A stretch of DNA of 63,834 nt, filler included, from Reclinomonas americana ATCC 50394 (lineage: Eukaryota), in NCBI GenBank assembly GCA_048213135.1. It is 23 parts of 23 records of this genome, joined end to end, with 100 filler letters (N's around TTAATTAATTAA, not from the genome) between each part and the next. Parts side by side here need not be neighbours in the genome. Positions count along the whole stretch, not along the records: positions 42,189 to 45,661 come from AFZH01024659.1; 22 more parts are not named here. The stretch is one strand, 5' to 3'. The notes below the pieces were generated by a model that saw only the letters and a program-made list of their open reading frames with translations, made no database searches and was not told where the DNA came from. A program made the position numbers and the translations under genes. Each line of letters starts with the position of its first letter. Positions within the stretch are counted from its first letter, which is position 1. Below are positions 1,953 through 62,472 of the stretch, in pieces.

Positions 1953-3763
1953 TTATCGCTGCTGCTGCATAAGAGCATGAAACATGGCACGCTGCTCTTG
2001 CAGCTCGCGTCGATAGGCTTCGAGTAGAGCGCGCTGGTCGCGAAGTTCCGCAGCTTGTGCCTCCAGCTGCTCCTGTTGCTCCTTGACGGCTTGTACGAGA
2101 ACGGCAGTGAGGTGAGCGTAGTCGACGGTTTCGTACTGCGCATTCGGCGAGCGGCCGACCAGTTCGGGGAACACGGCGGCGACTTCGTGGGCGAGAAGGC
2201 CGATCTCGCGACGATTGGCGGACAGTCCGCGCAGCTGCATGCCGGTGGAGTTCCACTCGTAGGTGACGGGGTTGAGAAGACGCAGGCTGTCGACGGCCCG
2301 CGATGGACGGCTGCTCGTGTCGGCTTGCGCCAGAGGCCGGATGTTCTGTTTGAGGCGTACGTCGGAGAGCGCCGTGCCGAGATCGATCGGGAACAACGTG
2401 CCGCTGCTGGAGCGCCAGAACGGTTGTCCACTCAACGCATACAACCACGACATATTGGCGGTGGCGGAGACGGCTGGATGACTCGCCACCTCTGTGATGC
2501 CGATCAGGTTGTCTTGCATGTGGATCTGCACGTTGCCGTGGATGGACAGCTCAAGTGCGTCGGCCAGGCCCACCACTGGATAGAGTCATGCGCGATGAGT
2601 GACAACGAAGGGCAAAAAATAAGCACACTCGAGCACAAACCAGTGGCAAAGAGACCCGAGTCGCCAAACGTGTCAAAGGCGTAGCCCACGTTGGAGACGC
2701 TGCCAGCCGTGGGTGAACCCGAGGCCGCTCGGTAGCCGCCCGTGTTGTGTACTTGTGCTGCAGGCGAGGCAATGCCGATGCCAAGGAACCAGCCGGCGCC
2801 GCCGGCATTGGTCAACGTCTGTGTGCACATGAGAGAACGAAGGAGACCAGGGGAGAAAATGGAGAGAAAAACAAACACACCATGCCGGTGGCAGTATCGG
2901 CCAAGTGCAGCGTGTCAAAGGTGGCGAGCGGTTGCATGGAACCCAGCAGGATCTTGGTGCCCGACTGGCTGAGCATGGGATTGCCGTTGAAAGAGAGTGT
3001 TGGGTCGGCGCCGCCCGTCGTCACCATGTCCAACAGCGCAGTCAGTGTCGCCACCGAGTTCGCCGACGGTCGCAGTCGCAGTCGGTCCACACCCCCCAAC
3101 ATCACCGACAGCTCACTCGACATGCCGCCCGTCGAGAACAGTCCCGTGCTCCCATCGTCGTCAAACGCATAGCCAATGTCCGTCAGCGGCGGCTCACCCA
3201 CTTTGGCTCGAATGCCGCCACGCACTTGCAGCTTGGTCGCCGGCGCCGATTCACCAATGCCCACTTGACCGGCGTCGGTAACAATCTGTGTGCAGAAGTG
3301 AGTGAAAAACAACGGCGGCAGCACCAGCAGCAACGGCACCACAAACAAACCAATCGATTGCTGGCGCGGAACACCACATCGGCAAAGTCCGTGCCCAGAA
3401 TGAGCGTCGTGCCACCACCATCCGTCGTCACATACGTCTTGCTGTTCATGCGCAAGGGCGAGTTCGACACATTCAGCGAGCCCGTCAACACGATCTCGCC
3501 AGTGCTGCTGTTCGGCACTGCAATGCGTGGAGTACCCGCCACCGAGAGCGTCAGATCGGGAGTGACCGCTGCAATATCGCACGAAAAGTGAGTCGCCAAG
3601 AGCACGTGATACGACAGCTGTGGAAACAATACCATTGCAAAACACTCCCGTATCGGCGGTGCTGTCGAATGAGAAACCGACATTGGATGAGGCACCCGAG
3701 GTCGCGCCGCGTGCCGCACGAACGCCGCCAGCCACATGCAGTTTGGCAACAGGTGACGTAGTT
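1953..3763 (-). CDS. 3' part of an intron-containing tail-fibre-like repeat protein with C-terminal Peptidase_S74 (intramolecular chaperone autoprocessing) domain and coiled coil
   Basis: Last exon encodes LSDVRLKQNI...LNPVTYEWN...IGLLAHEVAAVFPELV...VDYAHLTAVLVQAVKEQQEQLE, the S74 signature (Ser codon 2364-2366, Lys codon 2349-2351). Upstream exons carry three modules (TTSPVAKLHVAGG, VGIGESAPATKLQVRGG, LGIGIASPAAQVHNTGG). GT-AG introns of about 60 nt lie near 2577-2640, 2820-2880, 3286-3350 and 3570-3631. Confidence 0.88.
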
Positions 3764-17109: not shown

Positions 17110-18926
17110 CGTGGAGTCCGCAATGTCCGTGACGGTGGCCAAACTGACGGCGCGCTTGTCGGTGCCCAGCAGCAGCGTGTTGCCAGTCGACGCCAGCGAG
17201 CCGGCGTAGATGGTCGGCGACGACGATGCTGCAGACGATAGGCGCAACCGCTCCGATCCATCAATCATCAGCACCAAGCTGTTGGTGACGTTATCTGCAA
17301 AGAGGGGGAGTGTCAGCCGCGCACACGCACAGACATAGATCCTCTCGCGATGAATGCCGTACCGACATAGAGTCCCGTCTGATCGGAAAAGCCAAAGCCA
17401 ACATCAAATGCAGCTGGAGTAGGCAATCCAGACGCAACACGCACACCGCCATTGGCGTGCAACTTGACGGCCGGCGACGTGAGATCGACGCCGAGATTGC
17501 CGTCCGCACGCGAGTACTGCGATCGTGGGGAGGTGAGGAGGAGACGCACCGCTGTTTTTAGCGCACAGAATGACAGAACGCAACGAGGTGAGGAAACACC
17601 ATATCCATTGCGGCGAATCCACTGCCGAACAGCAACTTGCTGCCCGACGTTTGCAGCACAGAGAGGCCGTTGAAGGTCAACACGGGGTCGGCGCCGCCCG
17701 TCGTCACCATGTCCAACAGCGCAGTCAGTGTCGCCACCGAGTTCGCCGACGGTCGCAGTCGCAGTCGGTCCGCACCCCCCAGCATCACAGACAGCTCGCT
17801 CGACATGCCGCCCGTCGAGAACAGTCCCGTGCTCCCATCGTCGTCGAACGCATAGCCAATGTCCGTCAGCGGCGGCTCACCGACTTTGGCTCGAATGCCA
17901 CCACGCACTTGCAGCTTGGTCGCCGGCGCCGATTCACCAATGCCCACTTGACCGGCGTTGGTAACAATCTGCGTGCAGAAGTGAGTGAGAACCACGGCAG
18001 CAGCACCAGCAGCAACGGTACCACAAACAAACCAATCGATTGCTGGCGCGGAACACCACATCGGCAAAGTCCGTGCCCATAATGAGCGTCGTGCCACCAC
18101 CATCCGTCGTCACATACGTCTTGCTGTTCATGCGCAAGGGCGAGTTTGACACATTCAGCGAGCCCGTCAACACAATCTCCCCAGTGCTGCTGTTCGGCAC
18201 TGCGATGCGTGGAGTACCCGCCACCGAGAGCGTCAGATCGGGAGTGACCGCTGCAATATCGCACGAAAAGTGAGTCGCCAAGAGCACGTGATACGACAGC
18301 TGTGGAAACAATACCATTGCAAAACACTCCCGTATCGGCGGCGCTGTCGAATGAGAAACCGACATTGGATGAGGCGCCCGCGGTCGTGCCGCGTGCCGCA
18401 CGAACGCCGCCAGCCACATGCAGAGTCGCCGCTGGCGCCACCGTGCCGACACCCACGAGGCCACCAGATACCCACTATACCAAGATCGAAACGAAGAGTG
18501 AGTAAATGGAAATTATGGATCCATTGCTATCGACACCACCCGCACCATGCTTCCGCTCAAAACCGACACGGCGCCAAAGTCGTCGCCAACAAAGAGGGTG
18601 GACGGCAATCCAACAACTCCACGCAACGATCGCAGTCCACCGAGGGCCAATGTGCTGCCACTGACCGCCAGCGACCCGGTGATTGTGACCGACGAGGAAA
18701 TGTCAGCGGGCAACGTGAGACGCGCCACATCGCCGGCGATGATTTGCACACTGACAGGACCACTGGAGGTGCTGTAGATACCAGTGTCGTCGGCAAAGCT
18801 GAAGCCTGTATTCCGTGACGAGGCACTCGTCAGGCCCTGTTTGGCGCGAATACCGCCGCTGACATCCAGCTGCACGAGGGGAGTGCCTTGGTTGATGCCC
18901 ACGTAGCCGCTCGCCTTGGACAGCAC
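17110..18926 (-). CDS. Upstream part of the intron-containing tail-fibre-like repeat protein (5' partial)
   Basis: Modules GYVGINQGTPLVQLDVSGGIRA, LVGVGTVAPAATLHVAGGVRA, QVGIGESAPATKLQVRGGIRA and NLGVDLTSPAVKLHANGGVRV, with GT-AG introns. 17686-18422 is near-identical to 3002-3740. Confidence 0.8.
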
Positions 18927-19875: not shown

Positions 19876-20496
19876 GAGGCATACTGCCTTGGTCGCTATG
19901 CGCGAGAAACAGGATCGATAATTGGAGATTCGAAAGTGGAATCTTTTTCTAAGCTGAGGATCGGCGTTTCGGTTGTGGGGGTCGTTGCAAGGAGCGTGGG
20001 AAACGTCTCGCACCGGATTTTATCCGATGAGCACCCTCTTTGGGGTCGGAAAGACGGAAGAGGAAGAGAACCCAAAAATGGTCAATTCGAACCGGTTCGA
20101 ATTCGGTTCTATAAAGGTGGAGACCAACGATGAGTGATTCACTGCACTCTTTTTCTGCTCGGGGGGAGCACGTAACGTCGTCTCTCTATTACGTGAGTTT
20201 TCTTTCGCACTAGCGGTGTGCGTGTGACGTCGTTATTCGTCTGCGTGAGAAGTGGGACACATGCATATGTCAACTGACATGCATGTGATCATTCCCCTCT
20301 CCTCTCTCTCGCCCCCTAGATCGTCGTTGAACGTGTCGGTGAACGCGTCATTGTGGAGGAAGGAAGCTCGTTTGTGAGCACNNNNNNNNNNNNNNNNNNN
20401 NNNNNNNNNNNNNNNNNNNNNNNNNTTAATTAATTAANNNNNNNNNNNNNNNNNNNNNNNNNNNNNNNNNNNNNNNNNNNNCTGAGCACGTGCATT

Positions 20497-21810
20497 ATGG
20501 TCGCCAGTATGCTGACCGAGGGCCTACCCCGCGTTACAGTTGAACGCCAGATGGAGGCAGGGAGGCCGACACCACCGCCACCCCCACCGCCGCCGGCTCC
20601 TCCGGCGGTGCGTACGACCACGCAACCGGTCGGTACGGTTGGGCGGGGACAGAGCGTCACCCCGCGTGGCGCAGCACCTGTGCAGGCGAGGCCGGCCACG
20701 GCCAACCGCGGAGCACAACAATTGGCGGCGGCGGGTGGTCGAGGGGTCGGCGCCGGAGCGCAGCAGCATGGGGTGGCATACACAGTGCCGACACCCGTCC
20801 CTCACGCCAGACAGGAGTCAGCGGCCGCGCCGGTCGTCAATCGTGACCGGAGGGTGGATGCAGGCCACGCTGGCGGACAGATGGTGTACGTGGAGGACGA
20901 CGAGGAATGGGCGGAGGCCTATCAGGAGCCCATGTCCGCCCGCGCTTTCACGGAGGCGCTGGAGTTGCAGCGACTGCGGCGCGACAACGACACACTCCGC
21001 GAGTCGGTGGTCGACATGCGGAAGATGATGGAGCGTCTGGTGAAGGGACAGAAGTCTCTAAGCGAACGCCTGCGGGCGTCAGAGGCGGAGCGCGCCCAGC
21101 CAGTGGCTGGCCCAGAGGCGCAGGGGGCGGTCGCTCCAGCCGCCGCAGTGCAGCAGCAGCCGAGAGCGCCGCCCGCTCCAGCGGCCGCAGTGCAGCAGCA
21201 ACAGCAGCAGGGGGTGGCGGCGGGTTCTGCCGCAGCACAACCTGGCGAACCCGGTGTGGGGGCGGCGGCGCCCGCAGCAGCACCTGTGGTTGGAGTCGTG
21301 GCAGCGGCGGTGGTGCTACCGCCGACGGTGGAGGGCATGTTGGCCGCCGTCGGTGAGCCGGTGAACATAGACGCGGTGAAGAAGACCTTGCGAGAATTGT
21401 GCGCGCACGGGAGACTGTTTGCAGCGAGACTGCCTTTCGACGTGGCGGAGCAGGAGGCCGCAGCGGCGTCAATGGTGGACCTGCCGGTCACACGGGCCGA
21501 GAACCTCTTTGTCGAGGGAGCAGCAGAGCTCATTTCCCTTTCCCTGCCGACGAGCGCCGACTGGGCTGCTGCCAGAGTCGCCCATGATCGACAGCCTCTG
21601 GGACACTCACGCCTCGCCTTGGACCGCCTGGTCTACGACTTCATGAAGTCGCGCCGCGACATTGTGCGCGACGCGGGGTTGGCTATGATGAGCGACCAGG
21701 CGACTGGCGTTGGGCGAGGGTGGCCGGACACAGTCGAATTGGAGGTGAGGGCCTACGAAATGGCCGTGCACACCGACCAGCTCGTGACCACGAGGTCCCA
21801 GGCGGTACAA
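20497..21810 (+). CDS. Intronless Pro/Ala/Gln-rich protein with coiled coil, possibly a retroelement gag-like ORF (partial)
   Basis: Open across the whole contig with no introns, unlike most host genes here. Coiled coil FTEALELQRLRRDNDTLRESVVDMRKMMERL. Composition and layout resemble the gag ORF at 42320. Confidence 0.45.
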
Positions 21811-21910: not shown

Positions 21911-22832
21911 CAGCATGCATGGCCAAGCGCGCGTCATCGAGTTCGAAGTGAGCAAGGCCGCGCGGCGTGGACCACACTCGCATTGTCTTGTCATGGCCAC
22001 CCGCACTCACAATGTGCTGGCCATCAGGAGAGACGGCCACAGACGATACGTATACCCATGAAGTGTGTCCCTCCAACCGTCGCACTTCCTCGCCACTCGC
22101 CAAAGACCATACCCGCACTGTGTTATCCCCACTCCCACTCACGATATGCTGACAATTCGGAGTGACGGCGACACAATACACCCATGAAGTGTGTCCCTCG
22201 AAACGTCGCACTTGGTCTCCACTCATCAGCGACCATACTCGCACGGTGTTGTCTCCACTCCCACTCACGATGCGCTGACCATCGAGTGTGATAGCGACAG
22301 ACTGCACCCACTTAGTGTGTCCCTCCAGCCGTCGCACTTCTTCCCCACTCGCCATCAACCACACTCGCACAGTATGATCTCCACCCCCACTCACAATGTG
22401 CTCACTATCAGGGGTGACAGCGACTGACCACACCTTATCGGCGTGTCCTTCCAGCCGTCGCACCTCCTCCCCACTCGCCAGAGACCACACCCGTACTGTG
22501 TTATCGTAGCTGCCGCTGACAATGTGCTGGCCATCGAAGGCGACGGCGACAGACCACACCTTATCATCGTGTCCCTCTAGCCGTCGCACCTCCTCGCCAC
22601 TCTCCAGCGACCACACACGCACGGTACAGTCTCCACACCCACTCACTATCTGCTGGCCATTGGGGGTGACGGCGACAGACCACACCGGACCAGTGTCTCT
22701 CTCCAGTCGTCGCACTTCTTCCCCACTCGCCAGAGACCACACTCGAACGGTGCCATCCTCACACCCACCAACAATGTGCTTGCCATCTGGAGTGATGGTG
22801 ACGGACCGCACTGCAGCGAGACTCTGAATGAT
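21911..22832 (-). CDS. WD40 protein exon with seven highly similar 42-aa repeats (partial)
   Basis: Consensus GEEVRRLEGHxxxVxSVAVTPDGQHIVSGxxDxTVRVWSLAS with a 126-nt period. Splice acceptor-like CAG near 22833. Confidence 0.92.
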
Positions 22833-24530
22833 CTGTATCAATCACTCGTGGTGCGACGCACATGCACAAACACACAAACAACAACCGCACACACGCACGA
22901 GCACACGAATGCACGCACAGACACCAACCACGCAAAAGTGCGCACACATTCACACCTTGGTTGACATTCTCCTGCTCAGGATTGTCACGAGTTCCCGCCT
23001 TTCTTCTCCCGCCTTGCTCTGAGACGTCCCGCATCCCTGCAACCAGCACCCCACACAGCATGCGGTAGTGTGTGAACGATGTGGCTTCGTTGATGCGTGT
23101 GGGCTTTTGAAGACCGACATGGGACACGTTGATGCGATATCGGCAGAATGGACAAGCAGGGTGGTGGTGGCTCGAGGTGGCGCTCCACTGCACCGTGCTG
23201 CTGTCCAGCAACATTGCCTTTCGACTGACCTGCATTCTCTCTCAACGAGGACTGGACTGTCGGGCTGCTTGGATGTGCCCTGTTGTGCAGATGCCACAGC
23301 AAACTCGAGAATCGATAACGCACCGAGTCAGCGACACCTCACACCTCGGATCGGCCCACAGCGAAGTTGAGGTCAGACAATGAAGAAAAAGAGCCACATG
23401 AGACAGGAGAGGAGCGACCAGCACAGCAGCACAGCGGTGGACGAGGAAGCTGTGTCGTGAGACTCGCCTCCTCTCACTCAAGTCACAATCAATGCCTCGT
23501 GCCTTCAATCACACTCACGGTCGGTCGGTGAACCGTCTCATGCACGCACTGTGAAGCACGGAACCACGTGTCTTCGCATGCCAGTCTCTTGCCAGCACGC
23601 CTGTGTTCAGATCACACACAGAACTGTGTCAGTCAATCTCCAAGTCTCGCCAACTTGTTCCTCAACGCAGATGCAGAACACACACGCACCATGTGCTGCT
23701 TGCCGAGCACGTGTCTGCAGTCTCCCATAACCACCACATGGTCACTTGGCAGTGCCAGCAGCAACCAATGTGCGCACATCATCGATCCGCTCCGACTTGC
23801 CAGCCGGGATTGAAAACGATCCGCCGACCAGGCCGCCATGGCACACCACGGCACGCATGCGTACACCCACTCAACCGCGCTCTTCATGGCATGCACGGCC
23901 TGCATGAATCAGGTGAGTGGGAAGGAAAGAGGAAAGAGAGATCACAACGAAAAAGGCCACACACCTGCTTCGTGCATGGTGGGATGCGAGTGGGGAATCG
24001 AGCGAGTGAGGTGACAGCCGGCAATGGGCGATGCATAGCACGCCTATCATCGTCACAACCAACGAGCAATATGTGTTTCCATGGTGTCTGCATGTCGATG
24101 CACAGTGAGCAAAAGGAATGGAGGAAGAGGAGAGAAATCTACTAACGTGACGAACACACCGATCAGCACCTGAAACCAACACGCGTTTGCTCAAGAGGCA
24201 AGACGAGGGAAGCTTCTGCACACACAACAATCCTACGGGAGAGAGAGAGAGCAGACTCAGTCGGCAGTCACACCACCTCACGCACATCGGTATCGGGCTG
24301 CTCATCATGATGGACTGCCCAACACGATGACAGGATGCAATCGGTACATCATGAGCAGGTAAGCATAATCGGCTTCAAACGAGTGCAGAAAGGATGGAGC
24401 GCATGACTGGGGAAGCAGATGAGCGCGCAAAGGAGGAAGATGGTGAAGAGAGAGAGAGAGAGGGAGAGAGCGGGATGACATGCATTCTTCAGAGACGGAA
24501 GGAGTATGCACATGCACAATGGGAGAAAGA

Positions 24531-36267: not shown

Positions 36268-37056
36268 GTAGACCCCGTGCACACGGTAGTACTGCTTGAT
36301 GAACCCGCGATTGCGCATGATGTAGTAGCGATACGCGTTGCTCGACGCGTTCATGTGGCGGATGCCCATGTCCCACTGCTTGATCTCGCGCGTGCGCCGC
36401 AGGACGAACTCGTCCACGATGACGGCGGTGGTCCGGCGCGAGGCGAGCCACCCGTACATCTGGTCATCCCAGTAGATGAAGAACCTCGGGTCGGGGAGGC
36501 CGATCTGCGCGACGATCGAGCGGTGGATGAACATGCCCTCGAAGCATCCGCTGTTCATCTCCTTGAATCCGGAGTGGTCGAATCCGGACGGCGCGAACGG
36601 GATCGGGATCCCCATGCGCTCCGCGATGCGGTACTGCCAGTAGAACTCGCTGCCGTCGTAGTCGATGCGGCGGCCCTGGATGCTCTTGAACCGCGGTGCC
36701 CACTTGCCCATCTTCGCGAGGCCGTCGGTGAGGACCTCGACGTCGTCGTCCATCATCCAGATCCACTCGGAGCCGAGCTCGTACGCGGTGCGCATGCCTT
36801 CGCTGAATCCGCCGGACCCGCCGGTGTTCGTCTCCAGGCGGCGGTAGACGATCTCGGTGCCGATGCCCTCGCGGAACGACTCGACGACGGCGGTGGTGTC
36901 GTCGGCGGACGCGTTGTCGATGATCACGACATGGCCGGGCTTCGGGTCCATCGCGGTGATGCTCGTGAGCAGGCCCGAGAGCAGGTGAGAGCGGTTGAAG
37001 GTGACGATGACGATCGTCGCGGCCGTGGGGTCGAATGCAGCGGGCGCCGCGGTCAT
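36268..37056 (-). CDS. GT2 glycosyltransferase, galactofuranosyltransferase GlfT1-like (3' partial)
   Basis: IVTFNRS..IIDNASAD..NTGGSGGF..WIWMMDDD..CFEGMF..IGLPDPRFFIYWDD; ATGA overlap with the upstream gene. Confidence 0.85.
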
Positions 37057-38491
37057 GCCTTCTCCTCGAAGATCTGCTGCCAGGACTGGGGTGAGACGAG
37101 CTCGGGAAGCGCCTCGCGATACTGCTTCTGCAGCTGCGGCCACCGACGGCGGAGCTCGGAGTGCAGACGGATGCTCTCGCGCAGCATGCGACGGTACTGT
37201 CCGCGGTCGCGCGTGTAGATGTTCTTTCCGGATCCGTCGGCCGCGCTCACGAGGGCGCTGTCGAACGCGGGGACGCGCCACCACAGGGCGTCCTCCTTGC
37301 CGAACTCGACCTCGGGCTGCGCGATGTTCGCCGGGTGCGGCCGATGAAGCCAGTGCGACACGAGCGTGCGCAGCGTGAACAGACGAAGGGAGAGACCCGT
37401 CGGAGTGTCGAGATTGTTCTTCGACAGCTGCTGGAACACACGGCGGCCGCGTCGGGAGTGCAGCACCCTCGCCGGATCGCGGTGCACGACCGTCTCCGGG
37501 AACTCGGGAGCGAGAGCGCGCGCCGCGGGCATGGCCGTGGCGAGGTTGCGCCGCATGTGGTGGGCCCCGACAGGATGTCGCGCAGAGCGCGGGCGCGCAG
37601 AGCCACCGGGTAGTACTGCATCATCATGAGGTGCTTGAGGTCGACGCGCTTGCTGTGCTTCAGGAGAGCGCCCCCACGCGGGGCTCCGGAGTGCAGGAGC
37701 CCGGCGACGATCCGGTTGCGCGCGTGGAAGTACGCCTGCCAGTCGATCGTGTCGTCCTTGTTCACCCAGGAGACGTGCCACAGGGCGACGCCCGGCATCG
37801 AGACCGTCGGGAACCCGGCCTCTCCTGCGCGCAGGCAGAACTCGGCGTCGTCCCACTTGATGAACGCCGGGAGGGCGAGGCCGACCTTGCGGATCACGTC
37901 GAGGGGGATCAGGCACATCCACCAGCCGTTGTAGTCGGCATCCATCCGCATGTGGAGCAGGGTCGACTGGCGCAGGTTGGACACGCCGAAGTCGTGCGGC
38001 ATCTTCTCCTGATAGAGGTTGCGCCACATGAACGGGGCTTCGTCGACGACCTCGGCCCAGCCGTGGAGCTTGGGCCGGTCGAGCAGGTCGAACATATGCC
38101 CGCCGACGAGCACCGGTGTCGTCGCGTACTGACCGAAGACGATCGAGCGACGCAGGGACTCGGGCTCGAGGCGTACGTCGTCGTCGAGCAACTGCACGAA
38201 GTCGCTCTCGGGGCGCTGCAGCGTCTCGTGCATGGCACGGGCGAATCCGCCGGATCCGCCGAGGTTCTCCTGACGGATGACCTGCAGCGTCTCGCCGAGG
38301 CTCTCGGCGACCTCGTCGAAGCCGTCCTGCTCTGCCACGAGCTGCGACCCCTGGTCGACCAGGAAGATGCGGTCGACGAACTCGAGTGCGTCGGGGGAGG
38401 CGGCGAGAGCGCGCAGCGTCTCGACGCAGTAGTCCGGCTTGTTGTACGTGGTGATGCCCAGAGACGCCTTGCCGGACCGTGCAGGCTCCTG
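37053..38491 (-). CDS. GT2 glycosyltransferase, galactofuranosyltransferase GlfT2-like (5' partial; one frameshift at about 37562)
   Basis: GITTYNKPDYC..VDQG..QENLGGSGGF..LLDDD..DYNGWWMCLIP..FIKWDDAEF..WH..W..KDD.IDWQAYFHARN. The C-terminus continues in a second frame to ..QIFEEKA*. Confidence 0.85.
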
Positions 38492-42070: not shown

Positions 42071-42319
42071 TGTGTGCTAGTCAAGGGTNNNNNNNNNNNN
42101 NNNNNNNNNNNNNNNNNNNNNNNNNNNNNNNNTTAATTAATTAANNNNNNNNNNNNNNNNNNNNNNNNNNNNNNNNNNNNNNNNNNNNCACGCCAGGGTG
42201 GTGTGCTCCCATCTTCAACAAACCAACCTTCGCATCGCTGCTCGGTGGCACGTGTGCGTTGGAGTGCGTGAGCCCAGTTTGACGTGGACTAGCCATCGCG
42301 TTTTTCTGTTGGATCTGGA

Positions 42320-43909
42320 ATGCCGCCGAAGAATGCGAGGAAAGTGACCAAGACGCCGAGCTCGAGCACGCCGCTGCAGTCGCCGCAGCAGGCACGATCG
42401 CCGCAGTCGCCGGTGCCCATGCGGAGCTTGGAATCGCCGCAGCCGCAGCAGGAGCAGCGACAGCAGCGACAGCAGCGACAGAGTTCGAATTCCGGACCGA
42501 GTTCGAGTGTGCAGCCGGCCGTGGCGGCTCCGCCCGCTGTTACTCCGGACACCGTTCCGCGGTCGCGTGCAGATACTCCGGCTCCTGGGGTGGAGTCGTT
42601 CGAGAGTCGCTTGGAGGCGATGTTTGCGCGTCAGGCGAGCTTGATTGAGGGCCGGATGGAGGGGTTGCAACACGTTCTCCGCATGGCAGAGAACACTGCG
42701 GAGCGAGCTCTCGAGGAAGCGCGTGGCAACACAGAGCGCCTGAACCGGGTGATTTCTGGCACGGCGGCGCAGGGTGCGCAGCCGTCTGTCCGTGTGGCGG
42801 AGCCAATTACAACGACTGGACAGCAGCAACCGGCGTCGCAGGGAGCGGCGTCCGCGTCGGCAGCGGGTTCGAGCGCACCGATTACGGGACCGGTATCAGC
42901 GCGCAGTGTTTCCATTCAGCAGCCGTCGGAGCCTGTCGACGTGGAGAAGTACTTGGAGGAGGCTGACGAGGACGAGGAAGGGCAGTCCGACGAGGAACTC
43001 GAGGAGGAGTGGTTCTTGGACAAGCTGTGCGAATTTGATGACGAATTCACGAGCAAGTGGAAGGAAATGGCGGGCACCGAGATGTCACCGTTTCATGTAT
43101 TCGCGCGGGACGTGGAGGCGCGATATCAGGATCTGCAGCGGTCGTACGACGAGGACGGCGTGATGACGAAGGATCCGTTCGAGCTGAAGGTTTCGCGGAC
43201 CACGGTGCAGGCGTGTGGTTTCAACCCGGTGTTGTACCAGTGGCTGTCGCCCGATTGGCAGTGGGCGTACCAGGACTTGGCCGAGGTGCAGTTCATGCTG
43301 GCGCTGATGTTGCGCGCTGGGAAGGACGCCGATCCCACGCTGCTGGCCAAGGGCATTGCGTTGTGCGGCCGGCGAGTGGCGGCGCAGATGCTGCTTTTAG
43401 AGGCGCGTTTCGTGGAGTCGAAGAGCAAGCGGAGCGTGTCGGAAAAGCTGGCAATGCAAGTACGTCAGCAAGTGCTGGGCGAGCCCATTGACAGCTCGCC
43501 GCTGTTGGACCGCATCATCCGCAAGCATCGTCGGGAGGCGAAGGACGCGAGGACCGCCGACCGCGACTACGACGACGACGGCGACGAGGAACAAGTGGAT
43601 CAGCAGCGGCGGACACACCAGTCACCCGCACGATCGAAGTCTCCGACACACAAGGCAGTGTCGGCGTCGAACGCGCCAGGCGCGGGGACCGTCTGGAAGG
43701 AAACGGCTCCGAGACGACGGAATCGCCAGAGGCAGCGGCAGGCGTCAGCAGCAGCCCACAGACAGCAGGTGCAGCGGCAACCACAGCAGCAGCAGCATGC
43801 GCAGCAGCGCGCGGCAGCTGGCCGCCCGCGACAGGAACAACGGCAGTCGGGGGAAGTGCGTGGAGCCGCGGTGCGCGCTGGGCCGGCGGCTCCTCATCAG
43901 CAACAGTGA
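42320..43909 (+). CDS. gag-like ORF1 of the DIRS element (529 aa)
   Basis: ATG-initiated intronless ORF with low-complexity ends, coiled coil and basic Arg/Gln C-terminus, directly upstream of pol. Assigned by position. Confidence 0.75.
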   Translation: MPPKNARKVTKTPSSSTPLQSPQQARSPQSPVPMRSLESPQPQQEQRQQRQQRQSSNSGPSSSVQPAVAAPPAVTPDTVPRSRADTPAPGVESFESRLEAMFARQASLIEGRMEGLQHVLRMAENTAERALEEARGNTERLNRVISGTAAQGAQPSVRVAEPITTTGQQQPASQGAASASAAGSSAPITGPVSARSVSIQQPSEPVDVEKYLEEADEDEEGQSDEELEEEWFLDKLCEFDDEFTSKWKEMAGTEMSPFHVFARDVEARYQDLQRSYDEDGVMTKDPFELKVSRTTVQACGFNPVLYQWLSPDWQWAYQDLAEVQFMLALMLRAGKDADPTLLAKGIALCGRRVAAQMLLLEARFVESKSKRSVSEKLAMQVRQQVLGEPIDSSPLLDRIIRKHRREAKDARTADRDYDDDGDEEQVDQQRRTHQSPARSKSPTHKAVSASNAPGAGTVWKETAPRRRNRQRQRQASAAAHRQQVQRQPQQQQHAQQRAAAGRPRQEQRQSGEVRGAAVRAGPAAPHQQQ

Positions 43910-45661
43910 CTAGCCGGCGGGGACGCTGGCGTCGCGTGCCCGTGGGCCGAGGTGCGCGGCAGAGTGGAGGCCTGGGAGGATGTGTCGGACAAGGAGGTGT
44001 GGAAAGTGGTGGCACGAGGAGCGGAGCCGATCTGGGGCAATGCCGGTCCGCCGCAGCCATTTCGTTATCGCGAAAGAGCCGTGAATGTACAACACGACGC
44101 TGTGCTTCATGGGGAACTCGATCGCATGGTCAGAGTGGGAATGGTGGAGGAAGTAAGGCCGGGAAGCGCCGAGTTTTGCTCGCCGGCCTCGCTCATTGTC
44201 AAGACGAGGGCGGACGGAACGCTCAAGGCCCGAGTCGTGGTGGATCTGCGGCATCTCAACACCCATCTGCAACCGCGGCGGTTCAGGCAGGAAGGGCTGA
44301 AGGAGGTGCGCGCCTTGCTCAAGGACGGCGATCTGGTTGGGTCTGCCGACATTCAGGACGCGTTCACGCACGTGGCGCTGAGCGACGAGTGCAAGAGGTA
44401 CTTCGGCTTCGCGATCGGAGGACGGGAGTTCACGTGCCTGGCGGCGCCGTTCGGGTGGGCTCACTCGCCGATCCTTTGGTACAAGATGGCGGCCGAGTGC
44501 ATGCGGGAGATTCGAGCGGCGGGGGTTCGCTGCGTCATTTACGTCGACGACGTGTTGTGGTTCGCGCGCGACCAGGACGAGTACCGGCGAGCGCGCGAGG
44601 TGGTGCTGCGGGCCTTCACGCGTCGCGGGGTGCAAATTGCCTGGGACAAATTGTCGCCGGAGTTGGGCGCGTCGGAGATCAAGTACCTCGGCGTCATTGT
44701 GCGTTCGGTGCCGACGGCGTCGCTGCAAGTCACGGAGGACGTGCTGGAGTCCATTCGCCGGCGTGCGGGGGGCATGCTGGCGGCGCACGGTCGAGGGAAG
44801 AAGATCACCGCGCGGGACGTGAAGTCGTTCACGGGCAAGGTGCAGAGCGTGGAGCCAGCGCTGGCGGCGGCGAGGTTGTTCACCCGCGAGCTGCACAATG
44901 TGGTGGGCCGCCGGTTCGGCAGTCGCCGGGTGGCGTTGAGCGAACAGGCGGTCGAGGACTTGCGGTGGTTCGCCGATCTGCCGGCGGCGGAGTGTGTACG
45001 GCCCACACAGCGGCCCATGTTGTCGGTCGGAGTAGACGTGTTCACCGACACCAGCGCGCGGCGGAGCGCGTTGGTCCTCGGCGCGACGGATCCGGAGTTG
45101 TTCACGGACGCGTCGGGATGGGGCTGGGGGTGTGTGTGCGGCGAGGAGATGGACGGCGGAGCGTGGCCAGTGGAGCTGACGAGGGACGACGCGGTGTCGA
45201 TCAACCAGCTCGAGTTACGCGCGGTCGTGCACGCGCTGCGACGGTTCGCCGACAAGCTGCGAGGGCGGCGGGTGCTGCTCCGGTCGGACAACGCCACGGT
45301 GGTTGCCGCGTTGCGAACAGGGACGTCAAGGTCGCCTCCGGTGATGGCACTCATTCGGGAGATTTACCGCATCGTTCTGGAGCTGGGTGTGGTGGTGGTG
45401 CCGCAGTACATCAACACGAAGGAGAATCCGGCGGACGCGCCGTCGAGGAGTTCCGGCTTCACACCTTTGGAGTGGAGGATCGACCGGTCGTACGTGCGCC
45501 GGCTCGAGCGGCAGTGGGGATGCCGACACACGTTCGACGCATTCGCGTCAGCGGCGTCTCACGTGACGGAGCGTTACGCGTCGCGCCACCCAGACCCCGC
45601 GGCGGCGGCGGTGGACGCATTCAGCGTGGGGTGGGGGGGCGACACGGTGTGGGCCAATCCA
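43910..45661 (+). CDS. pol: reverse transcriptase + RNase H + N6-adenine methyltransferase-like domain (in frame with gag; 3' partial)
   Basis: RT: RVVVDLRHLN, DIQDAFTHV, PFGWAHSP, YVDD, KYLGV. RNase H: FTDASGWGWG, INQLELRAV, SDNATVV, NPADAPSR. MT: DAFAS...VDAFSVGW...WANP. Confidence 0.93.
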
Positions 45662-56725: not shown

Positions 56726-57283
56726 ACCACGCAGCTCAACCTCGCCGATTTCTTCAAGGCCAATTCGATGACCTATGAGGAGAAGGTCTATCCGAGCGCG
56801 GCCGAGGCCTTCGCCGCCTTCGAGGGTGGGCAATGCGACGCACTGACCCGCGACCAGTCGGCGCTGCATGGCGAGCGGCTCAGGCTGGCCAAGCCGGCCG
56901 ATGCGGTCGTGCTGCCGGACGTGATCTCGAAGGAGCCGCTCGGTCCGGTGGTGCGCAACGACGATTTCCCCTGGTTCACCCTGGTGCGCTGGGTGAACTT
57001 CGCGCTGGTCAATGCCGAGGAGCTCGGCATCTCCGCTGCGAATCTCGACGATGCCCTCAAGTCGCAGAAGCCGGATGTGCGGCGCTTCACGGGGGCGGAG
57101 GGCGGCTTCGGCAAGGCGCTCGGCCTCGAAGCGGACTGGGCGGTTCGCGCCGTCAAGGCGAGCGGGAACTACGCCGAGATCTATGAGCGCAATCTCGGCA
57201 CCGGCTCCAAGCTCGGCATACCGCGCGGCCTCAACCAGCTCTGGAGCATGGGCGGCGTGCTCTACGCCCCGCCGCTGCGCTAG
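56726..57283 (+). CDS. aapJ: General L-amino-acid ABC transporter substrate-binding protein (5' partial)
   Basis: NLADFF..CDALT.DQSAL..LPDVISKEPLGPVVR..D..W..VRW..AL.NAEELGI..GNYAEIYERNLG..RGLN.LW..GG..YAPP.R. Confidence 0.88.
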   Translation, partial: TTQLNLADFFKANSMTYEEKVYPSAAEAFAAFEGGQCDALTRDQSALHGERLRLAKPADAVVLPDVISKEPLGPVVRNDDFPWFTLVRWVNFALVNAEELGISAANLDDALKSQKPDVRRFTGAEGGFGKALGLEADWAVRAVKASGNYAEIYERNLGTGSKLGIPRGLNQLWSMGGVLYAPPLR

Positions 57284-57336
57284 CACGAAATGTCCTGTCC
57301 GCGGCCTCCCTCGACCCTGCGCTGGCCGAGATTGGC

Positions 57337-58044
57337 TCAGGAACCGCTCTTCACGCCCTGGAGATAGGTCATCACGTTCTGGGCGAGCTCCGCCAGCGTC
57401 AGCTCGTGGTTGAAGCGCCCGGTCCTGAGGAAGGTCACGACCTGGGCGACGACCAGCGGGTTGTTCATCATGAAGGTGTGGGTCACCGGCAGGACGATAT
57501 GGTCGGCCATGCCGTCGAGCTTGGTGCTCTCCACGGAGACCTTGCCGTCGTTCGGTCCGGCAAAGAAGGGCGACAGCAGCGGGTTGAGTGACAGGCTGCC
57601 GGCGATGATCCCGAGCTCGTAATCCGCGCTCGGCAGGAGGTTGGGCAGGCTGTCCGGGCTCGTTCCGAGCTGCCGGCCGGCGGGGCCGTTGATCAGCTCG
57701 AAGGCCGGCAGCCGCCCGAGCCCGTCGACCAGCTCGGAACCGTGATTGGGCGGCGCCAGCATGACTACGCGTCCGAGGCCGGGCGGGCGGTTTCTCTGCA
57801 GCCAGGCGCGCAGGAGGATGCCCCCCATCGAATGCGTGACGAAATGCAGCCGGGCGCCGGCGCAGGTTTGGACCGCGGTCTCGACATAGTCCACCAGGTC
57901 CTCGACCGCGTGATCGGTCGAGGCGTAGGTTTCATTGACGACCTTGTAGCCGATGGCCGAGAGCAGCGTCTCGATGAGGAGGAGCGACGTTCTGCGTCGT
58001 GCGAGGCCGTGAAGCAGGATGACGGTTTCGGGCTCAGTCGTCAT
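57337..58044 (-). CDS. Alpha/beta hydrolase (lipase/esterase-like)
   Basis: [15 protein letters not shown] nucleophile elbow; [19 protein letters not shown]. Confidence 0.9.
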
Positions 58045-58137
58045 GTGATCGGCGATTCATGTCGTCGGCTTCACTGTGTGAGCGGATTCTATCGCATGTT
58101 TTTCGCACGGGCCGGAGCCGTTGACGGTTAACAGCGC

Positions 58138-58904
58138 TCAGCGTGTCGGCTGGGCAGGCTGTGGATCGACGCTGGCACGCTCCTGCCGGACGCCGCTGCG
58201 GCGCGTGAGCATCAGCGCGACCATCGTCATGACGAAGAGGTAGATTCCCGGCACGATGGCGAGCCAGGGCGCCCGCGAGAAATAGGGCCGCGCTTCGGCG
58301 ATCATCGCGCCCCATTCGGGAGCCGGCGGCTGGACGCCGATGCCAAGGAAGCCGAGCGCGGCGATGTTCAGGATGTTGTGCCCGAACTGGAGCGCGACCA
58401 GCCCGGAGAGCAGCGGCAGCAGATGCGGCAGGATATGCCGCCGCAGGAGATAGAGGCGGCTGCCTCCGGCCAGCCGGGCGGCCGTCACGAATTCGCGCTC
58501 CCGCAGCGAGAAGGCCGTGGCGCGGGCGATGCGCGCATATTTGACCCAGCCGGTCAGCGACAAAGCGAGGATGAGCGCAAGCTCGCCGCCGCCGAGATGG
58601 GCCGCGAGGATCAGGGCGATGACGATCTGGGGCAGGGAGGTCATCAGGTCCATGACGAAGGTCAAGGCCCGGTCGGTCGCACCTGCGAGCTCCGCCGCGA
58701 GCATCCCGATGGCGATGCCGATGACGAGGGAGCAGACAATGATCGTCAGTGACAGCCCGACATCGCGCAGGAAGCCATGCGCGATCCGGGCCAGCACGTC
58801 GCGGCCGAGATGATCGGTGCCGAACGGGAAGTCCGGCCCGGGCGCGCGCAGGCTGTTGCGCAGCGAGGCTTCGATCGGGTCCAGCGTCAGACCATAGGCG
58901 ATCG
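58138..58904 (-). CDS. Peptide/nickel ABC transporter permease (DppC/NikC-like), 5' partial
   Basis: FGTDHLGRDVLAR; YARIAR..REFVTAARLAG..RHILP; LGFLGIGVQPPAPEWGAMI. Confidence 0.9.
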
Positions 58905-59128
58905 NNNNNNNNNNNNNNNNNNNNNNNNNNNNNNNNNNNNNNNNNNNNTTAATTAATTAANNNNNNNNNNNNNNNNNNNNNNNNNNNNNNNNNNNNNNNN
59001 NNNNTGTCTGTCTGTCTGTCTGTCTGCATGTCTCTCTCTGCATGTCTCTCTCTCTATTTCTCTTGTGTCTCTCCCTCTCTCTCTCTCTCTTCCCCCCTTT
59101 TTCCTCCTTGCTGATTGAATGCCTGCAG

Positions 59129-59491
59129 GTACCGATCATCCTCTTCGCCAAGGGCAGCCGGCGTGCGTTTGAGCGCTCGCACGACGCCGAGTGCGCGTAC
59201 GACGTGTTTGGCGTGGACTACACGCAGTGCCCGCTCGAGGCGCGTCGGCTGGTGGGCGAAGAGCGCGCCCTCCAGGGCAACATGGATCCGTGTGTGCTGT
59301 ACGCGACACCGGAGGTGATTGAGCAGCACGTGCGACGCATGCTGGGCAAGTTTGGCACGCGACGAGCGTACGTGGCCAACCTCGGGCACGGCATGCTTCC
59401 CGATCTGACTCCGGAGAACGCCAAGGCGTTTGTCGACGCCGTGCACCGCGTGTCGGAGGAACTCAATGCTGCTGCCAGCGCACCACAATGA
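59129..59491 (+). CDS. hemE: Uroporphyrinogen decarboxylase, last exon, haplotype B
   Basis: Same peptide as 32064-32426, with synonymous substitutions. Confidence 0.93.
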   Translation, partial: VPIILFAKGSRRAFERSHDAECAYDVFGVDYTQCPLEARRLVGEERALQGNMDPCVLYATPEVIEQHVRRMLGKFGTRRAYVANLGHGMLPDLTPENAKAFVDAVHRVSEELNAAASAPQ

Positions 59492-59649
59492 GGGAGTGGC
59501 TGCATGGAAGGCGGGATATAGCCAGAGTAGAAGGAGAATGTACAAAGAAGGCGCATAGTACATTATCTCGGATACAGGCGCACGCGTTGCGTTGAAAGAG
59601 ATTGCGACGCGGCAAGGAGGAAAGGAGAGAGAAGAGGGTGAAAAGAAGA

Positions 59650-62372
59650 TTACGGCGCTGGTGGCACAGTGCCCTGAGCAATCCACGTGACGGTCACCGA
59701 TTCGACTGCGCAGGTGGGGGAGAGAGAGAGAGAGTCAGTGAACACAGTTGATGGACGAGCACAACTGGGAGGGAGAATACACACCAGTGCTGCCGGCAGT
59801 GATGCAGATCTGCAGGCTGTTGCTGCCGGCTGTATAGGTCGTCGAAATGTCAAAGTCGACACCGCCACCGGCCCCGGAAGCCGCCTGCCAGCCGGCAGCA
59901 AAGTAGGCCACCACTGGCGCTGCGGAGAACGCAGGCAAGCTGGAAACAGTGACACACTGCGGTGCCGAGCGATTTGTGTTGCTCATGGAGATGACCACCG
60001 AGTTCGAGGCCACCGTGTACGGCGGGCTGTTGGCAAAGGCCAGCATGCCGACCGTGAGTTGTGCCACTCGTGAGTTGCCGTACGTTCGCACACTGCCACT
60101 CGAGAAAGTGAGCATTCCTACTCACACACACTCGCTGACAGCGTGCAGACAACACTCACCGATCGACAAAGGCTCCGGTGGAGACACTGGCGACGGTGTT
60201 GTCGAAGCGATCGTCGGTGGTCGCCCGCGTCCACACGCCCTGCGGCACCGCCACCACACTGGTGGTGGTGGACGGGAAACCACCGCCCAGGTTGATGTTG
60301 AACGTCTGAGTGCGCGTGCTCGGCGTGGTGGAATCCATGTCGCCGCCGCTGAGCGCAAAGGCGCCGCTGGCCGTGGCCACAAAGGTCTTCGGGGTGTACA
60401 CGGCGAACCAGGTGACGGAGAAGTGGTCAATGGCGGCATCGCCGTCGGTGGAGCACGTAATGGTCAGCGACGAGGACGTCACGGCCGATCGGGCACACTG
60501 CACTCGCGACTCGGAGCCGCTGTGGACGCCAAGTGCCGACAGACCGAGCACGATGCGGGGAATGCCAGCTGTGCGGTGACGCAGAGAAAATGGTGAGGAG
60601 ATTGTGCCGTGCATGATGGCACAGCAAAGCGTCACCACTCACCAAAGCCCTCCGTAAACGCCATGGTGCGCGACAGCGATCGTGGGCCAGTGACTTGCTG
60701 CCACTCTGTCGGCTCAATGTCCACGGTGTCCGTCTGGGCGTCTGTGTCGGGCAACACAGCACGTGAGACAAACAAGACGGTTGGGAGCAACAAGGAGTGA
60801 GGCGCACGCAACGAGAGCCCACAGCGATAACGACACTGTCGAACGACTGCGGGGCGGCGCCGGTGCGAACAGCCATGCAGAGACGGAGGGCAGTGCCGCG
60901 AGTGGCAGTCACACTCACTTGCAAGGCGGTGCAGAGACCAGCGGTGCACACGGCCTGGCAGTAGTCGGACGTGGAGGTGCATGCGATCGGCTTCACCGTC
61001 ACCGACGGGTCGGACGAGGCAGAGCACGGCTGCGAGACGGGCACGAGCGACACAATGGTGCTGGCCGGACGCAGGTTGCTGCCGACAATTGTCAGTGTTG
61101 TGGCAACCGAAGTGTGGATTTCGGTCGGCGAGGCCGACATGGCAGTCGGCAGCGGGTCAATGTCTGCGAAAGTCGACGGTGAGTGACGAGAAGGGAAGAA
61201 TAAGAAAAGAGTGCAACAGAGCAATCGTACCAGCGCACAGCGGACCGGTGAAGCCGAGCGGGCACGAGCACGTGGCGACGGCGTTGGCGGCCGAGGTCTC
61301 GACACAGACGCCTCCGTTGGCACAGCCGAGAAGGCAAGAGCCGCAGTCGGCGCCCGACCAGCCAGCCAGGCATGTGCATACTGCGTCGCCGGTCGGTGCG
61401 GCGGTGCAGGTGCCGCCGTGCTGGCACGAGCGGGAGCACACGCTGCAAGTGGCACCACTCCAGCCGCTGTTGCACTGGCACGACGGCTGGCCGCTGGCGT
61501 TCGGTACGCAGCTGCCGTGGTTGCTGCACGAGAAGCCGGCGCACACGTCGACCTTGTTGGCGCAGGTGTCGCCAGTCCAGCCCACGTCGCACTGGCACTG
61601 GAAGGCGCCCGTGGAGGCGAGTGAGCACTGACCGTGTCCGTTGCAGGTGTCGGAGGTGCAGCTCGGCGCGGTGATCAGTGGCGCGAGAATGGTCAGCTTG
61701 ATGCTGCGCGCAATCAGCGCCGAGGTGGAGAAGCCCTGTGTTGTGTGAATGCAAAGTGAGTACGAGATGCCACACTGCAAGAAACAGGCAGCAACGGTCG
61801 CTCACCAGTGTGTTGTACGACTTCCACCCACGCACTTCCCAGGTGGTGCCGGGCACAGCGTTGCTCGGCACAGTGAGGGTCTTGGTGCCTGTGGCCGTTC
61901 CGAGCCACGACCACACTCCACGAGTGCTCAGCGGACTGCTGTCGACCATGAAGCCGACCCAGTCGTCCGAGTTGCCAGGGAACTGTGGGGTGATGCGTAA
62001 ATGACAAGGGGATGGAAACGATGGAATGGGTGCTGACTGCACGTACCCCAGTCCACGCCACGATAAATGAGTCGCCAGGTTGGGCAGACGTCTGCATGAA
62101 GGAAATGAGAAAGTCGCCCCTCAGCCACACAGCTACTACCACCGCCACCACCACCACCAACCTTGTTGATGTACAGAGCCGCCGACGACGTGCGCGTCTC
62201 GCACAGCGTGCCAGTAAAGCCGGTGGGGCACACGCAGCCAGAGCTGGTCGAGTTGCACGTGGAGCCATTCTGGCAGCTGGCGCACGTGTTGGCGCAGCCG
62301 GTGCCGAAGCGACCCGTCTGGCACGTGCACGAGCCGGTGGACGTGCAGAGGCCGAACTGACCGCACGTCTGC
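59650..62372 (-). CDS. EGF/IPT/H-type-lectin-like protein, haplotype B (5' partial)
   Basis: Collinear reverse-complement match to 29200-31904 with the same intron positions. Confidence 0.75.
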
Positions 62373-62472
62373 NNNNNNNNNNNNNNNNNNNNNNNNNNNN
62401 NNNNNNNNNNNNNNNNTTAATTAATTAANNNNNNNNNNNNNNNNNNNNNNNNNNNNNNNNNNNNNNNNNNNN

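Follow-up and report, generated by a model that had tools for sequence, protein, structure and literature searches.

A single in-frame UGA-CUAG between ORF1 and pol in a DIRS-like retrotransposon of Reclinomonas americana: a candidate for stop codon readthrough

DIRS1-like retrotransposons, including DIRS-1 of Dictyostelium, contain three open reading frames (ORFs): a Gag-like ORF1, a pol gene coding for reverse transcriptase (RT), RNase H and a methyltransferase (MT) with no protease before RT, and a tyrosine recombinase (YR) gene that overlaps pol (PMC3266345, PMC5633606). The long pol/YR overlap is a DIRS1 trait, present in half of 28 elements (PMC3266345). In the portions of these papers available to us the translation of pol and the recombinase is left unexplained, and neither an in-frame gag-stop-pol arrangement nor readthrough is mentioned. 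Here we describe a DIRS-like element in a 63,834-nucleotide (nt) stretch of DNA (the window) from Reclinomonas americana ATCC 50394 (assembly GCA_048213135.1), in which ORF1 and pol lie in the same frame and are separated by one UGA that is followed by CUAG. The window consists of 23 short contigs joined by N spacers, and the element occupies the contig at 42189-45661, where it is truncated at both ends.

The element shares with the DIRS1-like group RT and RNase H with no protease before RT, an MT after RNase H, and a long second frame lying over pol; a long ORF also occupies the place of a gag-like ORF1 upstream of pol, but is without a homolog and has only Atlas leads below 0.9. On the basis of these features, taken from a truncated contig, it appears to be a DIRS1/PAT-type tyrosine-recombinase retrotransposon. 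Ngaro elements similarly belong to the YR order and carry gag and RT-RNase H (PMC3783388, PMC8547959), but, according to the available text of PMC3266345, they lack MT and usually lack ORF overlaps; membership of Ngaro was rejected, as an MT start and an ORF overlap are both present here. The nearest pols are 47-49% identical, and in a 45-row FastTree phylogeny the window pol forms a clade with seven other lineages (support 100), although this tree holds no named DIRS1, PAT or Ngaro reference and leaves the superfamily unassigned. The truncated C-terminus aligns with the MT of P0001 (Dam PF05869, precomputed) and of P0159 (Dam E=3.7e-4, below the cut-off), and the window MT fragment itself has no Dam match in Pfam.

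The junction between ORF1 and pol

The junction reads CAG CAA CAG, TGA (43907-43909) and then CTA GCC GGC GGG GAC, and the same frame has zero stops over 43910-45661, where the contig ends. An earlier note on this DNA, made from the sequence alone, had described the in-frame TGA with its 3' CTAG and a first in-frame ATG of the pol frame at 44126, and both are borne out. It also described the frame as open through RT, RNase H and MT; Pfam matches support the first two domains, whereas the MT is cut short by the assembly spacer. The UGA is the sole stop in 1114 codons and is located no more than 10 codons from a domain boundary. From its position we infer that ORF1 is gag. It has no Pfam match and no homologs at E<=1 (query 42329-43906, three codons short in both cases), and its Atlas matches reach only 0.83-0.85 (below 0.9); one of these has LAP2alpha, which is linked to DIRS gag, on 21% of its members, and provides a lead.

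Readthrough at UGA-CUA and UGA-CUAG has been tested for viral and mammalian signals (available text of PMC3159437 and PMC9841425), and the earlier note had called UGA-CUA(G) the best-characterised programmed readthrough signal. Type II readthrough involves UGA followed by CUA or CGG, and with CUA directly 3' of its UGA the junction carries a putative type II signal. CTAG follows just 3 of the 1821 TGA triplets on the two strands of the window (the junction TGA counted), CTA follows 6, CTA or CGG 65, and any C 573; the motif was chosen post hoc and these frequencies are lower bounds on chance. CTA is not used at any of the 1111 other in-frame gag and pol codons, nor at any of the 75 other leucine codons. 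CTAG occurs at only two sites on the plus strand of the element, the other being just 5' of the gag ATG, and the two have an 8-mer in common (42287-42294 and 43908-43915), a match at the chance level (blastn E 4.6).

Conserved pre-RT sequence 5' of AUG 44126, also claimed in the earlier note, is present: among 94 aligned pol rows W22 (80/94), G37 (86/94), P48 (87/94) and E69 (75/94) are kept and are part of the RT fold, and M73, which corresponds to AUG 44126, is present in just 12/94. In the predicted model, residues 11-72 have block means of 97-98 in the predicted local distance difference test (pLDDT), and the first few residues are disordered. Alignments to solved RTs mostly begin at model residue 6-16, with residue 11 opposite HIV-1 RT residue 1; one example is Ty3 RT (Z 20.0, root-mean-square deviation 3.2, 281 aligned). 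The stop thus sits 9 codons 5' of the start of the RT domain. Alignment and model together indicate that the region upstream of the first AUG is translated. A pol start at AUG 44126 was rejected, being unlikely because the upstream residues 11-72 are conserved and folded; it would remove the folded RT N-terminus, with a loss of 72 residues in all. Scanning to AUG 44126 would also be hindered by four AUGs in other frames that precede it (43980, 44040, 44085 and 44109). The nine codons between the stop and a conserved CPW motif include no in-frame ATG, GTG, TTG, CTG or ACG, and none of them is one change from ATG. With the pre-AUG region translated and no common start codon in the linker, pol would need readthrough, splicing or an unusual start.

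Translation of pol

We consider readthrough of the UGA to give a Gag-Pol fusion to be the best explanation of this organization, and a reasonably probable one. A plausible scenario is that termination at the UGA yields a 529-residue Gag in most cases, while a minority of ribosomes, aided by the 3' CUAG, would insert an amino acid by means of a near-cognate tRNA and go on to translate a short disordered linker followed by RT-RNase H-MT. The product would be a Gag-Pol fusion of more than 1114 residues, which the element would be unable to cleave because it has no protease gene between gag and RT; a high Gag:Pol ratio would result, with RT tied to the particle. The earlier note had proposed such a fusion, and the RT fold before the first AUG, the four out-of-frame AUGs, the standard host code and the unfused relatives are in accord with it, whereas a stimulatory structure, to which we return below, has no clear support.

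That UGA is instead a sense codon in this host, either reassigned or read as selenocysteine, is very hard to credit. In the host, TGG encodes the conserved tryptophans of an aminopeptidase and the URO-D gene terminates with TGA, showing that UGA is a stop; in a WD40 array 13/13 tryptophan codons are also TGG, a count that is partly circular. Rfam finds no SECIS family match in the contig (the element 3' end lies off it), and the UGA falls in an unconserved linker.

Comparison with the relatives provides a context for the junction. In none of the seven nearest lineages does the protein call fuse Gag to Pol (the calls are 605-781 residues long), which argues against a nonsense mutation. The called pol starts are no more than about 9 residues from the position of CPW in four lineages, inside the conserved region in two, and about 100 residues upstream in one, and mark the gag/pol boundary as a family feature; one relative contig apparently has two differing start calls (P0012 and P0159). 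The junction could alternatively reflect a damaged copy or an assembly consensus, either through a nonsense change in a fused gag-pol or through an indel that moved pol into the gag frame, such that the stop may once have led into the recombinase frame. This would be consistent with there being only one copy, on a short contig and unsupported by reads at the junction, and long single-ORF forms do occur among more distant relatives: 3 of 158 proteins (175 minus 8 integrase-bearing, 2 fragments and 7 near-duplicates) have more than 300 extra N-terminal residues. In the DIRS-like P0062 (1166 residues) a single ORF contains pol preceded by about 515 residues; this protein is a possible natural Gag-Pol fusion, its size being as expected. 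A search for longer proteins yielded 12 matches, four with RT/RNase H families only (23-25% identity) and eight integrase-bearing polyproteins, with no close fusion among them, which is weak evidence. However, damage would have had to place the only stop of the open frame beside a domain boundary and in a rare context, and the -1 frame stays open across the junction, from its gag part (P=0.036) into pol, which an indel would preserve by chance only. We regard damage as improbable.

Separate translation of pol is unlikely in our view, and could occur by termination at the UGA and nearby AUG-less reinitiation, or by initiation at GUG 43952, perhaps on an RNA from a minor promoter in the junction like that of Tca2. 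Reinitiation without an AUG occurs in LINE-1 ORF2. The M called at the pol boundary in four of the seven nearest lineages is consistent with a separate start, as is the position of GUG 43952 (V15), where the part shared by distant DIRS pols begins. GTG and TTG starts are also written as M by gene callers, however, and these residues may be of that kind; with 64 of the 583 pol codons being ATG, GTG or TTG, an M call near the stop will be common. The shared boundary consequently fails to separate readthrough from a separate start, because a called M may stand for another codon. Two of the seven lineages are called inside the conserved region, a GUG start would lose the CPW that is invariant in four aligned rows, and the rare CUAG would be left unexplained. 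The Tca2 junction does carry a promoter, according to the available text of PMC2194720, which adds to the case for separate expression.

Splicing would provide another route, in which a phase-1 donor in gag (best at 42774) is joined to TAG 43911-43913, giving a protein with about 151 Gag residues ahead of Pol; in a variant, the -1 frame would be reached by splicing this donor to CAG 43900 or 43906. The host is intron-rich, no other AG than TAG 43911-43913 lies between the stop and CPW, this acceptor requires a phase-1 donor, and the top-scoring gag GT is both in phase 1 and similar in score to host donors (5.0, using matrices built from only 12 hand-placed host introns); phase-1 sites make up 17 of the 93 GTs in gag. 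The acceptor is far less convincing, as it scores -5.6, below 12/12 host acceptors (-0.4 to 16.1), and ranks 75 of 248 AGs, with an AG-free zone of 5 nt versus 13-229 nt in the host and no branch motif. A 54-nt intron beginning at 43860 would have a poor donor (-3.4). We give splicing little credence.

Several observations weigh against readthrough, including the well-scoring phase-1 donor. The structured stretch that the earlier note placed 3' of the stop was not recovered, as the 154-nt fold has a z of -0.21 and 77/200 shuffles fold as well. Among nine shorter windows the first 40 nt (z -2.07) and first 60 nt (-1.98), in which the two small hairpins of Table 1 lie, stand lowest and the remaining seven range from -1.43 to +0.89, leaving a 3' stimulatory structure without clear support, and type II signals generally require 3' structure (PMC3159437, in the text available). 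Rfam gives one chance-level match on the element (E 0.19). The residues directly after the stop are unconserved among relatives, and the -1 frame also restricts the bases near it. In a yeast reporter, the similar-looking junction of Tca2 failed to direct readthrough, and a minor promoter is present (PMC2194720, in part). The four nearest pol calls start with M just before CPW, and if these are true AUGs then the family starts pol separately and the present copy is the exception. Finally, the junction is known from one copy: tblastn finds no second copy in the window, locus scans of metagenome, viral and genome collections for the DNA of relatives gave pattern matches with no confirmed relative (and none in phages), and no reads span the junction, the one matching sequencing run (share 0.06) covering 45397-45661 only, with no RNA run among the matches.

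The overlapping -1 frame and other features of the window

The -1 frame, which the earlier note had overlooked, has 0 stops across pol relative to a mean of 9.5, a value equalled by none of 10000 synonymous shuffles, and in the part before its first ATG (43910-45115) there are 0 stops versus 8.2 (P=2e-4). Over the final 139 codons of gag it is open as well, although the signal there is less clear (P=0.036). There is no AUG in this frame before 45118, and its GUG at 43906-43908 overlaps the gag UGA. It has no Pfam match, and Atlas matches of 0.94-0.96 were left uncounted as support because an incorrect frame of a genuine gene is able to reach such values. The frame is probably the 5' part of a tyrosine recombinase ORF, since DIRS1 elements are known for an extensive overlap of pol and YR; neither a recombinase domain nor an element end is found on contig 42189-45661, which stops inside MT. 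There is no canonical slippery heptamer in 43400-44140, and the only relaxed in-register site, at 43441, was rejected as a site of -1 frameshifting as it lies 5' of a -1 frame stop at 43489.

One leaky stop might conceivably act as a three-way switch, in which termination would give Gag, frame-0 readthrough would give Gag-Pol, and entry to the -1 frame at GUG 43906-43908, by reinitiation or by a shift during slow termination, would give the recombinase ORF. We propose this tentatively and consider it rather doubtful; it is suggested by a single reporter whose -1 frame output was attributed to ribosomes initiating or reinitiating at an AUG that overlaps a UGA (PMC9841425, in the available portion). 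If true, both of the AUG-less overlapping frames would be explained from a single RNA, and this would be the first concrete translation mechanism for DIRS elements. The features of the element are listed in Table 1.

Table 1. Coordinates of the element's features, numbered along the window.
Feature	Position	Strand	Basis or remark
5' leader	42189..42319	+	contig starts here, left terminus incomplete
ORF1, putative gag, 529 codons + TGA	42320..43909	+	ATG 42320, TGA 43907-43909
Best-scoring splice-donor-like site in gag, phase 1	42774..42779	+	score 5.0, 12-intron host matrix; bears only on splicing alternative
Stop-free -1 frame, 723 codons	43492..45661	+	overlaps gag 3' end and all of pol; first ATG 45118
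GUG in -1 frame overlapping gag UGA	43906..43908	+	sequence; possible entry to overlapping ORF
UGA-CUAG, gag stop in putative type II readthrough context	43907..43913	+	sequence; motif from PMC3159437, PMC9841425 (available text)
Pol frame	43910..45661	+	9-codon unconserved linker, CPW 43937-43945, RT, RNase H, MT start
Two predicted hairpins, 43913-43930 (GGGA loop) and 43931-43960	43913..43960	+	weakly supported
Conserved, folded RT N-terminus 5' of first in-frame AUG	43937..44125	+	alignment, predicted fold
RT, Pfam	44231-44701	+	RVT_1 E=6.5e-19
20-residue insertion before RNase H	45014..45073	+	absent from nearest relatives; both frames stay open
RNase H, Pfam	45095-45313	+	RT_RNaseH E=1.1e-5
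MT domain start	about 45467 to contig end 45661	+	alignment with relatives

The insertion before RNase H resembles a degenerate duplicate of the FTDxS motif, and is disordered in the predicted model (pLDDT <50 at residues 369-388).

Among the other parts of the window, which include intron-rich eukaryotic contigs and bacterial-looking pieces but no tRNA genes, we note a contig-spanning open frame of 443 residues at 20482-21810 that is Pro/Gln/Ala-rich, has a coiled-coil-like part and is without a Pfam match. It may be ORF1 of another element; ORF1 of the present element has no similarity to it or to the N-terminal half of P0062. Two contigs (29100-32480 and 59075-62472), which carry an EGF-repeat gene and a URO-D end, are about 96% identical in inverted orientation and are probably alleles or recent paralogs assembled apart. 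The intron-less contigs at 32830-38491 and 56726-58904 contain bacterial-looking ORFs of transporter, glycosyltransferase and hydrolase-like types and are likely co-assembled contaminants. A eukaryote-looking gene end at 1956-2585 (minus strand) has a Peptidase_S74 (endosialidase chaperone) domain, and the neighbouring segment 2983-3607 is repeated at 17666-18289 in another contig with 95-97% identity. At 25700-27700 (minus strand), 2 of 12 examined host introns start with GTTGCG after a non-G exon end, and at 21912-22841 (minus strand) the WD40 array consists of tandem repeats of 126 nt, to which a segment at 25182-25461 is related.

Comparison with known recoding systems

We found no report of readthrough in DIRS elements in the open-access literature, a search outside which lie the original Cappello, Goodwin and Poulter papers, Repbase entries, and supplements with possible ORF coordinates. 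In the text available from each, PMC3266345 and PMC3783388 make no mention of readthrough or a stop codon, PMC7192593 makes none of a stop codon or frameshift, and PMC13517186 and PMC5009743 make none of DIRS. The gag-stop-pol layout is itself already known, from murine leukemia virus and Tca2, and readthrough is a well known mechanism. What the junction offers is a short, testable signal for translation of a DIRS pol, and, if readthrough is true, it would extend stop-codon control of the Gag:Pol ratio to a protease-less order of retroelements and would mean that UGA-CUAG works in a protist.

A similar layout occurs in Tca2, a Ty1/copia element of Candida albicans in which gag and pol are in one frame split by a UGA; unlike the element described here, Tca2 is a long terminal repeat element with protease and integrase, and has a predicted pseudoknot that is not seen here (PMC2194720, in part). 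In murine leukemia virus, gag-UAG-pol gives Gag-Pol through readthrough at about 5% (as cited in the available text of PMC2194720), which is the scheme proposed here, but the signal is of type III, with UAG, an 8-nt spacer and a pseudoknot, and the fusion is cleaved by a protease. The viral type II cases add a conserved 3' stem-loop, which is weakly suggested in the element, and type II efficiency, measured in mammalian cells, varies more than 10-fold by context (about 1.5-17%; PMC3159437, PMC9841425, in the portions available). In the same sources, the stop codon and 3' tetranucleotide of the alphavirus UGA-CUA and mammalian UGA-CUAG signals are identical to those at the junction of the Reclinomonas element.

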